DNA of 64,000 bases from an uncultured cyanobacterium (lineage in GTDB: Bacteria > Cyanobacteriota > Cyanobacteriia > Cyanobacteriales > Nostocaceae). Location: assembly GCA_963706595.1 (NCBI GenBank), contig OY970166.1, forward strand, positions 1,568,001 through 1,632,000, given 5' to 3'. The position numbers were made by a program. Each line of letters begins with the position of its first letter. Positions within the stretch are counted from its first letter, which is position 1. Below are positions 18,001 through 27,000 of the stretch, piece by piece.

Positions 18001-21000
18001 AGGTTGGATGGGTGGGCTAGTTACCCAAAATAATTTAACACCACAAAAAGTAGTTGGCAATTTGCAAAGTTTTGTACAACTAACTGATGATAAGTTAGAT
18101 TATCTAGCTGCTTTTTTAGATGTAGCCACCAATTACTATGAACACACTGGGACACAAACTTTGGCACATCGCTTGATTGAACGAGCTGTAGCTGAAATTT
18201 AATCAGTTTGACTCCAGCAATTTGCAAGTAAATGAAGCACACATCTTAATAGTATAAATTTTGTGGGGTGGGCATACTTCGGCAAGTGTTACAGTGAGCT
18301 TGCCGAACTGCTCAGTACAAGTCTTGCCCGCCTTGATGTGAAATATAATTTGACAACGAAAAGCGCAACTGCATTGTTGTTGTTCAGTATTTTTAGGTAT
18401 TTTTATCAAAAAATTTGATATTGGTACAAGTATATGGGGAATAATAAAAAAAGAAACAATAACTGTGAGCGACGTTACAATGTCAGTATCATCTGATACC
18501 CTGTCTACTATTCCTGGATATCGCATTATCGAACAAATCTATTCTGGCAGTAAAACCCTAGTTTATCGAGGTATCAGAGAAGCAGACCAAAAAAGCGTCA
18601 TCATCAAATTGATGCGGAATGAACACCCTACATTTGCTGAAATCTCTCAGTTCCGTAATCAGTATATCATCACCAAAAGCCTTGATATTCCTGGTATAGT
18701 CAAACCTTTAAGCTTAGAAAATTACCGCAACAGTGATGTCTTAGTGATGGAGGACTTTGGCGGCATATCGCTCAAAGATTGGGAAGTTATCAAAAATAAT
18801 CCCCAAGGAAATGGTTTAGGGTATAAAGAGTTTTTTCATATCGCTATAGAAATAGTATCTATTCTAGAGAGACTACATCGCGATAGCTTTCGCGAAGCGT
18901 GTGCTTTGCACTCAGCGCTCCACAGAAATCGCATTATTCACAAAGATATCAAACCCGCTAATATATTAATTCACCCCAGCACTCTCGAAGTGAGATTGAT
19001 AGATTTCAGTATTGCTACCTTGCTACCGAGAGAAATTCAATTCGTCACCAACCCCAATATCTTAGAAGGCACATTAGCCTATATTTCCCCCGAACAAACA
19101 GGACGGATGAACCGAGGTATTGATTACCGCAGTGACTTTTATTCCTTGGGAGTCACCTTTTTTGAACTCCTCACTGGTAAATTACCCTTCACGACCACAG
19201 ATCCCATAGAATTAGTCTACTGTCACATTGCTAAACAGCCACCCACAGCTAGCCAAATTAACCCCAATATTCCACCAATACTGTCTTTAATCATCAGCAA
19301 ACTGATGGCCAAAAATGCTGAAGACCGTTATCAGAGTGCTTACGGACTCAAGCATGACTTAGAACAATGCCGCCAGCAGTGGGAACAGACCGGAAATATC
19401 ACAACCTTCGAGTTAGCACAAAAGGATATGTCTGACCGTTTCCTGATTCCTGAAAAACTCTATGGCCGCCAAACAGAAGTAGCAAAAATACTTGCCGCTT
19501 TTGAACGTGTCAGTAGTGGCACAACAGAAATGATTTTAGTAACAGGATTTTCTGGTATTGGCAAAACATCAGTGGTTAACGAAATTCACAAACAAATTTT
19601 GAGCCAACGTAGTTACTTTATTAAAGGAAAATATGACCAATTTAAACGCGACATTCCCTTGTCAGGATTAATACAAGCATTTAGGGACTTAATCGGACAA
19701 ATACTATTGGAAACAGATGCCCAAATTCAAGAATGGCAAACTAAAATTTTGTCGGTGTTGGGGACACAAGGTCAAGTAATTATTAATGTAATTCCTGAAC
19801 TCGAATTAATTATTGGTAAGCAACCGGAGGTGGCAGAAATATCTGGTAGTGCCGCCGAAAATCGATTCAATTTATTATTGCGAAGATTTATTCAAATCTT
19901 CATGACTAAGGAACATCCTTTGGTAATATTTTTAGATGACTTGCAATGGGCTGATATAACTTCATTGAAATTAATTCAGTTATTAATTAGTCAAAATAAT
20001 ACAATTAGAGAAAATATGAGCTTGAGTGTTTCCCTAACAAGTGAAACAAGTCTCTTAATGATTGGTGCTTATCGGGATAAAGAAGTGGTAAAGCCACATC
20101 CCCTAAATTTTGCTCTCGAAGAGATGAAAAACTCTGGAGCAGTCATTCATACTATCACGTTAACATCTTTAAATCAAGGAGATTTAAATCGTTTAATTGC
20201 TGATAGTTTGCGGTGTGGAGAGAATCAAGCGATCGCCCTGACACAAATGGTATTTGCTAAAACTAAGGGTAATCCTTTCTTTATCCATGAATTTCTCAAA
20301 TGCCTACATAAAGATGGACTAATTCAATTTAATTTTGAACTGGGTTATTGGCAATATGACCTATCAAAAATTCAGGCGTTAGCACTGACGGATGATGTGG
20401 TTAAATTCATGTCTATTCAACTGATGAAGTTGCCCAAGCAAACTCAGCAAATTCTCAAATTAGCAGCCTGCATAGGTAACAAATTCGACTTAAAAACTCT
20501 TGCCATCGTATATGAGCAATTAGCAGTAGATACAGCCTCAGATTTATGGCCAGCATTACTTCAAGGGCTAGTTCTACCGCAATCTGAAACATACAATTTA
20601 GTCGCAAAAAGTAGTGATCATCAAAGAAGCACTCTTAGCCAGAGTCACAACCAACTACCAATATATAAATTTATACATGACCGGGTACAACAAGCTGCTT
20701 ATTCTTTAATTCCCGAACACCAAAAACAGTCAATTCATTTAAAAATTGGGCAACTGCTGTTAAAAAATATCCCCATGACTGAACGGGAAGAACTAATTTT
20801 TGATCTGGTAAATCAATTTAATATCGCCATACCAATAATTCATCTTCCTGGCGATCGCGAGCAGCTAGCCCAGATGAATCTAGTTGCTGGGCGTAAAGCT
20901 TTGGCATCAATAGCTTTTCTCTCGGCGCTGAAGTATTTAAATACTGGAATTAAACTACTTGCAGATGATAGCTGGGAGACACAATATGAGCTAACTTTGG

Positions 21001-24000: not shown

Positions 24001-27000
24001 GTTATCAGATTATTGTGGAGCAGCACAAAGGTCAGCTAACCTGTAATTCTTCTCCTGGAAATGGCACAGAGTTTATTATCGATATTCCATTACAGATGAA
24101 ATAGTAAATTCATGTGAGGTTTTAGATGAATTTACTATTTATTAATTATCGGTATATGATACTATTTAATGCATTCAGCTTGAAGCTAACAATTGACCAT
24201 GCTGAATTTGAGAATTTCCTGTTAGTTGTTGAAGAGCTTCACCATTTGGATGATTGAATGGTTGTTTAATGTGATTTTTTTTAGCATTGATTAGCAGGCT
24301 ATCTACTAATATGCTAAATAAATCAAAGACTTGATTAACCAATTGCAAAGATTCTTTCAAAGTCTCTGTATCTAGATGAATATTTGTAATTATCTCCGCA
24401 GTTTTAGATGTGTACATTTGATGGTTAGACTCGGTGACGATATGATAACTACCAAAATATGGGTATTCTCTATTAGTAGTCAGTTTTAGTTCTTCAGTAA
24501 CTTGTGCCGTTGTTGAGAGAAAAATATCTGCTATTGCTTCTATTGCTTCTATCACGACCAACTTATGAATAGGACTAGCTTGAGCAGTATAGCGATATAT
24601 TTCATGGATTGTCTGCCGTGAAATCTGTGTTTCATCACTCCAAAGAAATTTCAAGCTGTCGTTGAGATTTAAGGATGAATTAAACTCTAACAATTGCAAA
24701 TCTTCCAAGAACCAGATCCAGTGATGATCATCTTCGTGAGTATATTCGTTGATGATAACTTGAATCGGATCACTGTTTGTTTCGTCTCGCCAAACGTATT
24801 TATTCAACTCTGCGAAACCCATGACAAAGGGAGCAAAGTAAGGAGCAAAAGCCAGTCTTTGCATTGGGTCTATGCTTTTGTCTTGTAAAAACTTAATAAA
24901 TGGTGTTTGGCGGAATTGTTGCTTCTTCTCTGCAATTAATGCCAAGACTAATTTCATTGTTTTACCCTCTAGATTTTAGGAATTCCAGGTTGAATACAGT
25001 TGACGGCAACAACACGCTTTATAGACTGCGTGTGAACTTATCTTGAATTTGAATGGTCAAAATTAAACTTACCTCCGTAGTATTTAATAATTACTTTAAA
25101 AATTTAACTGTGATTTTACGTGACTTTTTGGGAAATATTAATTTTTATTAGTACAAAATAAATTACACTAAGAGTTTTATTTAGTAATTTTACTTAGAAA
25201 GCAACACAATTTATTTGGAGATGTCCATTTGGCGGTGAACAGCAAAAAGTAAAAAAACCGCACCTATAAATGTCAGTGCGGCTGCAAAAAATGGTCATCT
25301 AAAATGCCAAGTCCTGGGAAACGCTCTACTTTCAACGAAAAGGCGGAGGGGAAGGGAGCAGGCTTGCCTCTTTTTCAATTCAGACTGCCGATGTTTTCAT
25401 GGAGTTTTGGATGTTACACTTATATGGGTAAGTTCAAATCAGATGCGATCGCACCAAAATAAGGTTGAAAAATTGCCAAATTTTCTAGCTCATCGAATTT
25501 ACCGATGGTCGAGCCGGGAGCAAAAGCTGTGGTAATTACATATATAGCCTGACCATCAAAGGCCGCATGACTGATATGTTGCTCATGTACTCCACCCTCT
25601 GGCTTAATTCCGACAAACCCGTAGCGTATTCCCTGAAGTTTACCAACTGATGCTTGTTGTGTTGGGTAGGCTGAAAACACAATTTTGTTTTTATAAGTAT
25701 CCTGACGGTCTTTCACAGCAGTAGCGTTTAAATCTGCAACCCAAGCCTTCAATGCTGTTAATAACTGCTTTTGGGACTCAGGACTTTGGTAATCTACTTG
25801 AGTATCGAGTGGAATACCCGCATCTGCCAGATTTTGGGGGAAACTTGGATTCTCTTTCACCGGGTAAACACTGATTTCCACCGTACCCAAAACTTTTTCT
25901 TGAGAGGAAACACACAGTAGAGGGGCGTTTCCCTCACAAGGTGCAACTTTCCAACCATTTGGGGTAGGTGTTTTCCCCAAAATTTTCTTCCAAGTATTTT
26001 CTGCTTTGGAATTGGGAGTGGTTGAAGCAGTTGTTGGAGGAGAATTGCTTTGAGTTATCGTTGCTACAGCACTTGGATTTTCGACAACCGCAGGAGAAAA
26101 CCGGGGGAGAATAGTTTTGACTCCCACTGGTGTTAAAGCTAATAAAAAAGCTCCGATAAACAGATGATAAACGCGCAACATTTTTCGTGATAATCCTGAG
26201 CCAGAACTTGCAGACTAATAGTATCCACCACACCTTGTGAGTATACAAGAAGATACATCTGGGGAGTGGGGAGTGGGGAGTGGGGGGTGGGGAGTGGGGA
26301 GTGGGAAACAGCTTTTTGAGTTGTAAGCGCAAAGCGCAGGCTACGCCAACAGAAATCAAATAGGAGTCCTATATTTATGGCTGTTAGTTTTAATTAGCAA
26401 ACTGTGCTAATAACTTTTCAGATGTGTCACATAGTAGTTGGTGATGCTCACCGTTACTCGCCAGCAAACCACCCCACTGATTAATATCTTCGGTGTTATA
26501 TGCCAACAAACTGCCATCGAAGTGTGTAAACTTACCACCAGCTTCTGTTAAAACTAGTTCTGGGGCGGCTATATCCCAATCTTTAGGGGCAGATTTCCCG
26601 GAAAGAGAAACGTAGACATCCGCCTGTTGTTCCAGAATAGCGACAACTTTGCAGCCTATACTGCCTACAGATTTGTATTTTTGACAAGGAAAGTTTTGTA
26701 ATAAGTAATCTAAAGATTCATTGCGGTGAGAGCGACTGGCAACTACAGTTAAATCTGCCACAGGCTTACCTGAAGACACTTGAATGGGAGCAAAGCCATT
26801 CCGGGTTTCCACAAATGTACCCCCACCTTTGGTAGCAAAGTATAACTTTTCTGTTTCTGGGACGGCAACTACTGCTAAAATTGGACGCTTTTCTTTGACT
26901 AAAGCGATGTGAATGGCATACTCCCCAGTTTTTTCAATAAAGTCTCGCGTACCATCTAAAGGATCAATAATCCATACCAATTCAGGGGATTCTTTACTCA

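Follow-up and report, generated by a model that had tools for sequence, protein, structure and literature searches.

Hybrid kinases beside small indole- or terpene-making gene sets suggest an undescribed chemical signalling system in cyanobacteria

The window analysed here is a stretch of 64,000 nucleotides from an uncultured cyanobacterium of the Nostocaceae. A variable site within it, bordered by two conserved hypothetical genes, holds an HstK-type hybrid kinase and a heme-oxygenase-like diiron oxidase (HDO), placed tail-to-tail across an intergenic gap of 70 bp. The features are:

17315..18202, + strand: hypothetical but conserved gene that bounds the variable site on the left, 86-96% identity in same-site relatives
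18483..24104, + strand: HstK-type hybrid kinase, 1873 aa, ATG at 18483 (in-frame GTG at 18465), catalytic motifs present
18519..19358, + strand: Ser/Thr kinase domain, residues 13-292 (Pfam Pkinase, E 6.5e-31)
19455..20000, + strand: STAND-type ATPase domain, residues 325-506 (Pfam AAA_16, E 4e-40), with Walker motifs A at 355 and B near 483
21183..22082, + strand: exchangeable segment, residues ~901-1200, proposed specificity module (sliding identities, trees)
21429..22523, + strand: part of the predicted TPR superhelix aligning to MalT domain III, residues 983-1347 (AF2 mean pLDDT 85; VIA Z 20.4, rmsd 4.2, 337 aligned)
22683..23126, + strand: GAF domain, residues 1401-1548 (Pfam)
23316..24095, + strand: histidine kinase core, HisKA 1612-1659 and HATPase 1757-1871 (Pfam and motifs)
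24099..24140, no strand assigned: AT-rich hairpin that overlaps the stop codon of the kinase gene (24095-24185 folded as RNA, z -3.35, 0/200 shuffles as stable)
24957..24175, - strand: AetD/SktA-like HDO, 260 aa, stand-alone, without tailoring gene, six iron ligands intact
25420..26181, - strand: hypothetical but conserved gene that bounds the variable site on the right

The kinase runs from the Ser/Thr kinase through the STAND ATPase, a helical arm and TPR superhelix, and the GAF domain to HisKA and HATPase; Pfam recognises Pkinase, AAA_16, GAF, HisKA and HATPase_c on its ORF. It has no receiver domain, as there is no Response_reg match and the HATPase extends to residue 1871 in a protein of 1873. 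The hairpin is probably a terminator common to both convergent genes. A promoter scan gave a result at chance level. In genome G385 the two border genes are joined directly. In DNA run X1, cover is low at 21538-22004, which carries no weight as evidence, and one contig, covering 24042-24557, bridges the ends of the two genes.

The initial annotation stated that both sktA-like genes of this genome lie tail-to-tail with a giant kinase, that the genome has three such kinases, two of them flanking these genes, and that the second kinase is split. All of this was borne out. A tblastn search returned exactly two HDOs and three kinases, and at the second locus the HDO (contig position 2538426, + strand) is followed by a FOXRED-like flavoprotein gene, an FMO gene and a convergent kinase in two ORFs, without SktB. 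What splits them is an apparent change of frame at a C5 run; the orthologues at L022 and L363 are whole, and in a frameshift check 1 of 31 test genes was shifted.

What kind of enzyme is the window HDO? Its top PDB match is AetD (E 5e-45), to which it aligns without gaps over 220 residues (PDB 8ji2/8twn; PMC10654658, accessible text), and the 3His/3carboxylate ligands D76, H79, E140, H172, E176 and H179 are kept in both HDO copies of the genome. With SktA of the sktABC cluster (PMC11869266) it shares the HDO fold, the six ligands and F214. However, the name skatole synthase, given to it earlier, is not supported: its pocket reads I139/I142/F214, against the T139/T142/F214 assigned to SktA by AlphaFold comparison (PMC13108848), it carries Y72, it stands alone with SktB and SktC absent beside it, and its identity with the HDOs of clusters that contain SktB is 44-46%. 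The AetD nitrile synthase pocket M139/A142/S214 is not present either, and the window HDO differs from AetD, in the account given in the accessible text, in having no P450 or tryptophanase cluster alongside. The second HDO copy has a pocket of I/T/F at positions 139/142/214. SktA, which converts Trp into skatole, cyanide and CO2, and AetD are themselves 39% identical, with differing products.

The pairing of HDO and kinase is real, and the coupling lies far above chance. In an even sample of the phylum (401 genomes; 73 HDO places in 48 genomes, our own two included), a kinase of this architecture lies within 6 kb of 36 of the 53 HDOs with intact iron ligands, where about 2.6 are expected, and of none of the 20 degenerate copies; the other 17 intact HDOs are without such a kinase nearby. 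In a further 23 genomes, sampled separately, 8 HDOs out of 13 adjoin a kinase. At 25 control kinase loci, chosen regardless of neighbours, neither an HDO nor a terpene synthase was found among the neighbouring ORFs, 55 of 68 of which were Pfam-scanned. The sampled genomes are kin and many loci were reached via their HDO; HstK-type matches number 0-36 per genome. A whole-kinase search of contigs returned mostly unrelated His-kinase domains; only full-length matches were kept, and duplicates were counted once. As for orientation, it had been claimed that most sktA loci have a convergent kinase (51/80). The coupling stands (36/73), but convergence is less general: 19 of the 73 places are convergent, 12 divergent and 4 tandem, and in 1 the kinase is two genes away. 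All five clusters with SktB and SktC in the even sample end at a convergent kinase of the window's clade.

The kinases partnering HDOs fall into five lineages, a single clade being rejected (AU, p 6e-5), and one plasmid carries the unit Trp-prenyltransferase, HDO, FMO and SDR genes, convergent with a kinase. The earlier statement that Microcoleus loci lack the kinase needs correcting: 11 loci of genus g23, which is probably Microcoleus to judge from named 247-aa homologues, carry a divergent kinase of another lineage, and the g23 loci without one mostly hold a paralogue HDO whose iron ligands are lost. These 11 loci amount to one event, and many loci belong to kin at a handful of sites, which would suit mere hitchhiking: insertions that were few and old, made where recombination is frequent, and then passed on and transferred together without functional link. 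Five separate kinase lineages speak against it. On Streptomyces and Cupriavidus plasmids no STAND kinase was seen within 7 kb of the HDOs (ORF translations by eye), so the link is shown within cyanobacteria only.

The kinase is not dedicated to indole, as had been supposed. Window-clade kinases (n=38) face 22 HDO cassettes, 10 terpene-synthase cassettes and, in 6 cases, none. Six of the seven close NS1-like synthases are faced by a window-clade kinase, and four of four further kinases of this clade, with neighbours not known beforehand, also face terpene synthases. At the window's own chromosomal site one finds a solo HDO, a TPS+oxidoreductase or a TPS+P450 cassette (L340, L358, L359). Two unrelated synthase folds beside one clade are again difficult to reconcile with hitchhiking. 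In the close relatives G402, G403, G404 and G407 (99% complete) the kinase occupies this site with no cassette, and a genome search found no HDO; L235 and L238 complete the six orphans. Retention of the kinase after loss of the cassette would be compatible with hitchhiking. In G359 and G401 the STAND-TPR part alone remains beside the HDO. A Nostoc sesquiterpene minicluster has been described as synthase, P450 and a presumed two-component protein of the hybrid type (PMC4558948 citing Agger 2008). This arrangement recurs at L237, L239, L240, L339, L359, L365 and L366, although some loci have an FAD oxidoreductase in place of the P450; in the accessible text of PMC4558948 the kinase is recorded merely as a neighbour.

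To judge from sequence comparisons, kinase residues ~900-1200 are exchanged as a module that changes along with the gene set. Between L340 and L004, identity is 75-90% up to residue 900 and 28-43% beyond, whereas no such drop is seen in four control pairs of orthologues (72-100%). With segment limits fixed after inspection of divergence plots, and with orphans and truncated rows left out, trees of 26 clade kinases require 5 cassette-type changes for residues 901-1200, as against 8 for the backbone and 7 for the C-terminal part; the S2+GAF tree requires 6, so it tracks cassettes in part. The 901-1200 tree sorts kinases by cassette type, and the trees of both flanks reject two such groups. The six TPS+P450 kinases form one clade on it (SH-aLRT 99), which is rejected by the backbone (p 2e-5) and by the C-terminal part (p 8e-5). 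Of segment and C-terminal part, it is the latter that is closer to the cassette; therefore, co-transfer alone fails to explain the pattern. That cassette type is followed more closely by an inner segment than by the cassette-adjacent part further weakens hitchhiking, which we regard as improbable, even though the segment varies without cassettes too. In the cassette-less tandem paralogues L264 the backbone is 77% identical and the segment 30%; exchange of the segment is thus a trait of the family.

The correspondence is not strict. The HDOs of L014 and L255 are 87-88% identical and their segments only 42%, which rules out strict one-to-one coevolution of HDO and segment; on the segment tree the kinases of solo HDOs do not form a single clade (p 0.097), and HDO and segment are only weakly correlated in a partial Mantel test (0.24, p 0.008; after thinning of the set 0.20, p 0.07). 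The GAF domain was discarded as first-choice sensor, since it has no partial correlation with the HDO and the TPR region tracks the cassette best.

The predicted TPR superhelix matches the sensor of MalT (Z 20.4, PDB 1hz4) and the Rap/AimR pheromone receptors (17-19). In the model, the window kinase resembles MalT in having a Walker A/B ATPase core followed by an arm and a TPR-like superhelix; unlike MalT, it has two kinase outputs and not a DNA-binding domain, and at 12% identity a common fold is no proof of function. In MalT, inducer on the arm-sensor triggers nucleotide exchange and oligomerisation (PMC4381067, accessible text). TPR folds match broadly (APC/C, Z 20.7). Superhelices of this kind often bind proteins, and several top fold matches are protein scaffolds; accordingly, the segment might bind the enzyme itself and not its product. 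We consider this very improbable, as the orphans have no enzyme and as segments of kinases facing tailored HDOs and terpene synthases, 50-65% alike, pair with unrelated folds. A predicted complex of the TPR segment with the HDO scored 0.00, which is evidence neither for nor against.

The reading towards which we lean, with somewhat more confidence than doubt, is that of a synthase-receptor module in which the kinase senses the small product of the cassette through the TPR-region module and not the GAF domain. The HDO would oxidatively cleave tryptophan, in halogenated or prenylated form at loci with tailoring genes, and so yield a hydrophobic indole of small size; at sister loci a sesquiterpene would take its place. 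The product would cross membranes and bind the arm/TPR superhelix, opening the STAND switch as in MalT, with ADP to ATP exchange and oligomerisation, and so activating or silencing both outputs, His kinase and Ser/Thr kinase, towards partners whose genes lie elsewhere. Specificity would shift by recombination of residues ~900-1200 upon cassette change, and cassette-less kinases would be receivers only, or leftovers. Counting against this reading are the six orphans, the 17 intact HDOs with no kinase near them, the L014/L255 mismatch, the weak Mantel correlation, the truncated kinases of G359 and G401 and the apparent frame change in the second kinase. Of the initial proposal of a dedicated indole synthase-sensor pair, then, the pairing holds, upheld by coupling above chance, five kinase lineages and the plasmid unit, while "indole" and "dedicated" fall; ligand sensing is what we infer.

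Alternatively, the kinase might sense an outside cue and turn the cassette on, the product being a defence or allelopathic compound and not the ligand. LAL-type STAND regulators of Streptomyces clusters are a precedent for such cluster-situated regulation. Linkage, variety of orientation and orphans are all accounted for, and distant HDOs adjoin genes of other regulatory kinds (WD40-STAND-like, SARP, PAS-GAF kinase); expression of HstK-family members, moreover, responds to nitrogen or iron status (PMC2176072, accessible text). Yet nothing in it predicts a TPR segment that sorts by cassette type more than the output domains do, and the window module has no cognate DNA-binding regulator, so that we hold it unlikely, if worth serious attention. 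A kinase detecting a toxic product, a by-product or a competitor's compound, and conferring tolerance and not communication, seems to us quite improbable. Conflict systems typically have STAND sensors that change fast, SktA releases cyanide, and orphan kinases are compatible with eavesdropping. But terpene cassettes yield no cyanide, PADLOC matches are confined to the generic kinase domain, and the ligand-binding step is common to the synthase-receptor reading.

The HstK/cbSTKIII dual kinases of Anabaena share with the window kinase an N-terminal Ser/Thr kinase, GAF and a C-terminal His kinase; the accessible text of PMC2176072 names no ligand and mentions no STAND-TPR core for them, whereas here synthase cassettes are linked to one clade, in which an exchangeable segment is mapped. 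In the literature covered, some of it in part, no ligand is named for HstK-type kinases, and neither the skt nor the Nostoc sesquiterpene clusters are given a biological role. The accessible main text of PMC11869266 proposes no signalling role for skt, and "kinase" has 0 matches in its supplement and 0 in the HDO review PMC13108848. Nor did the literature searched, which excludes subscription papers and Agger 2008, yield a report of cassette-kinase coupling or of indole/terpene cassette interchange at common sites with a segment match. A kinase that stands beside indole- or terpene-making sets, and has a repeat domain changing with them, points to chemical signalling of a kind not yet described and offers the kinase family its first candidate ligand. 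With cognate ligand candidates, a ~300-residue domain open to expression and swapping, and orphan kinases and same-site cassette exchanges as natural controls, kinase-ligand and cluster-role questions become directly testable, and small-molecule signalling in bloom-forming and symbiotic cyanobacteria could be revealed.

Candida Chk1p, of fungal group X, is likewise a soluble protein with Ser/Thr kinase, GAF and His kinase and is required for the response to the sesquiterpenoid farnesol. It differs in being a hybrid with phosphorelay and receiver, no linked synthase is described for it, and its direct sensing of farnesol is unproven (PMC8274445, PMC4965123, accessible text). TPR_CHK1 (PF25503), with an atlas lead score of 0.88 and 15% of members, had no match in our genome or in controls. 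It is tempting, if tentative, to propose that filamentous cyanobacteria run a family of volatile-type cell-to-cell channels, in which interchangeable indole cassettes (HDO with halogenase, prenyltransferase, FMO) or sesquiterpene cassettes would write, STAND hybrid kinases would read through the recombining TPR module and cassette-less strains would eavesdrop, and that the same principle may explain the farnesol dependence of Chk1p-type kinases.

In agr and ComQXP quorum-sensing loci, the signal gene and the receptor input domain co-vary inside a conserved frame. Their signals are peptides and their receptors lie in the membrane, whereas the proposed system would use small indoles or terpenes and a soluble receptor. 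Linkage and co-variation of synthase gene and kinase input domain were both found here, L014/L255 and the six orphans being the exceptions.

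The locus comprises two genes, given here in window coordinates:

18483-24104, + strand: HstK-family hybrid kinase, 1873 aa, with Pkinase, AAA_16, GAF, HisKA and HATPase domains
24957-24175, - strand: heme-oxygenase-like diiron oxidase (HDO), 260 aa, convergent with the kinase and 70 bp past its stop

The intergenic interval contains a hairpin (z -3.35), and no response regulator is found among the genes of the module. The nearest named relatives are Nodularia. The source genome has two HDO genes and three kinases of this architecture, the counts also given by the initial annotation. 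At the second locus, the order HDO>FOXRED-like>FMO runs into the second kinase. A frame change at a C5 run breaks this kinase in two; its orthologues are whole. The third kinase has neither an HDO nor a terpene synthase (TPS) among its neighbours. A short element at window ~26260-26374, probably a dispersed repeat, shows a greatly raised metagenome contig depth and many loose ends.

Pfam and NCBIfam searches with the window HDO gave no matches; AetD is its gapless alignment partner (E 5e-45). Since all six iron ligands are kept, diiron oxidase activity is to be expected of it. A Y replaces the usually invariant H72. SktA and AetD are 39% identical and differ in chemistry; they are distinguished by M139/A142/S214 in AetD and T139/T142/F214 in SktA (PMC13108848). 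At these positions the window HDO has I/I/F and the second copy I/T/F. The window enzyme belongs with the AetD-like HDOs and does not pass the tests for SktA that were run. With a pocket of I/I/F rather than T/T/F, and being 44-46% identical to HDOs from SktB clusters (second copy, 56-57%), the window HDO is not established as a skatole synthase, the label it had been given; its product is likely a tryptophan-derived indole.

Elsewhere in the family, all 19 sampled genomes of one genus, probably Microcoleus, carry a conserved AetD-like paralogue that has lost the diiron ligands (e.g. K76, Y79, Y172), a probable pseudo-enzyme located between ndk-like and proB-like genes, as named by eye (L044, L045, L048, L050, L052-54, L056-59, L061-64, L066-68, L073). 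The best 120 homologues include 27 long ones, and 23 of these (P0014, P0017, P0031 and others) have a C-terminal tandem RLGxxLxxxG-type motif. That region has no Pfam match, and the motif resembles the c-di-GMP-binding MshEN motif; these HDOs may be c-di-GMP-regulated. AetD-like matches in a plasmid collection include records of Escherichia (266), Piscirickettsia (36) and Salmonella (22).

An even draw of 401 genomes contained 73 HDO places in 48 genomes, every one of which was fetched. A family kinase lay within 6 kb of the HDO at 36 of the 73 (19 convergent, 12 divergent, 11 of these from one genus, 4 tandem and 1 separated by two genes), including one kinase truncated where its contig stops and two without the His-kinase part. 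Scored on the six AetD ligands (PMC10654658), the 73 HDOs divide into 53 intact and 20 degenerate ones. Linkage holds for 36/53 intact HDOs, where kinase density, after a 1.5-fold inflation of the counts, would give ~2.6 by chance, versus 0/20 degenerate ones, the latter being essentially one event, with 19 belonging to a single paralogue clade. Seventeen intact HDOs have no linked kinase. In a further sample, of 23 genomes, linkage was seen at 8/13, two of its loci duplicating ones already fetched from the genome contig scan. The pairing reported initially is borne out, and more widely than claimed. A backbone tree of 63 kinases places the HDO-linked ones in five lineages and rejects a single clade (p-AU 6e-5), so common descent is not the sole cause of linkage; this weighs against hitchhiking, which we regard as improbable. 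On a plasmid, Trp-prenyltransferase>HDO>FMO>SDR lies opposite a kinase of yet another lineage. Tailoring genes near HDOs comprise two halogenase families, FMO, FOXRED-like, two prenyltransferase types, SDR, and a methyltransferase together with an aminotransferase.

Clade members (the lineage of the window kinase) without an HDO led to TPS>P450 cassettes opposite the kinase. The same 401 genomes hold 11 terpene synthases. Six of the seven at ≥54% identity lie opposite a clade kinase, one being the query, three first reached via the kinase and one disrupted by one deletion; in the seventh genome, synthase and kinase occupy separate sites. None of the four distant synthases is linked, and terpene cassettes accompany all four further clade kinases whose neighbours were previously unknown. 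Relatives differ in what they have at the site of the window module, where the flanking genes are shared. The variants are a solo HDO (three types), TPS with an FAD oxidoreductase (L340, L358), TPS with P450 (L359), the kinase alone (G402, G403, G404, G407, with no HDO found anywhere in these genomes), an HDO beside a STAND-TPR-only protein (G359, G401) or neither kinase nor cassette (G385). The tally for 38 clade kinases is HDO 22, terpene 10 and none 6, biased in that many were fetched through HDO. The initial proposal of a kinase dedicated to indoles does not hold. Control loci for 25 kinases outside the clade had no HDO or terpene synthase, and a few of these loci have possible specialised enzymes. 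In two species the STAND-TPR-only protein (~1040 aa, neither kinase domain) stands opposite an intact HDO (L362:719-3835; L003/L241). Genomes G289 (L019, L238) and G145 (L338, L235) each keep cassette and cognate-type kinase at separate sites.

An AlphaFold model of kinase residues 700-1560 has a TPR superhelix and GAF domain (mean pLDDT 85). Its best fold match is to APC/C subunits (Z 20.7), followed by MalT domain III (Z 20.4, rmsd 4.2, 337/366 residues, kinase residues 983-1347), then the Rap and AimR receptors. In MalT, inducer binds to this arm-sensor, and the ATPase switch opens (PMC4381067). Terpene-linked L340 and HDO-linked L004 are 75-90% identical through residue 900, and their identity drops to 28-43% over the segment ~901-1200. 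L255 and the window kinase are 81-89% identical along the backbone and 47% in the segment, where L255 reaches 63% with kinases from a different site. No such dip is seen in four orthologous pairs. By these identities, residues ~901-1200 are exchanged as a module.

Across the 26 clade kinases whose cassette is known (kinases without a cassette and truncated rows left out), the segment tree needs 5 cassette-type changes, the backbone tree 8 and the C-terminal tree 7. On the segment tree, the six TPS+P450 kinases form a single clade (SH-aLRT 99), as do the two with TPS+oxidoreductase (SH-aLRT 87); each grouping is rejected by backbone and by C-terminal part. Since the C-terminal part sits between segment and cassette, simple co-transfer, as in hitchhiking, predicts that it should track the cassette better, the opposite of what is seen; selection for a segment–cassette match is the plainer reading.

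We consider it somewhat probable that these loci are synthase–receptor modules, in which the HDO or TPS cassette would make a small product and the STAND hybrid kinase would read it via the exchangeable TPR segment. Several observations count against this proposal: L014 and L255 have HDOs 87-88% identical and different segments; the segment tree does not unite the solo-HDO kinases in one clade; the HDO–segment partial correlation is weak (0.24; thinned set 0.20, p 0.07); and segments also diverge between cassette-less paralogues. The six cassette-less kinases and the kinase-less intact HDOs do so too. That the kinase instead regulates the cluster seems unlikely; a role in self-protection is very improbable, and we give hardly any credence to binding of the enzyme itself.

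In the quorum-sensing pairs agr and ComQXP, signal and input domain co-vary, and the proposed module would be alike in this respect. Candida Chk1p, whose architecture is similar to that of the window kinase, offers an analogy only; it is needed for the farnesol response (PMC8274445). A literature search, with subscription papers outside its reach, found no report of the HDO–kinase link or of segment exchange.

Other combinations were encountered. Distant HDOs lie close to large WD40-repeat proteins, probably of STAND type, and a SARP/BTAD gene (L065, L069, L333, L335), possibly a second sensor class. Elsewhere, the gene just downstream of a PAS-GAF histidine kinase is an HDO (L031, L032, L034). 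Another kinase lineage adjoins a TPP enzyme paired with ketosynthase III (L243, L244, L245), which may be a third type of cassette, and at L354:9002-11534 a kinase precedes two carotenoid-oxygenase (RPE65) ORFs that might produce volatile apocarotenoids.
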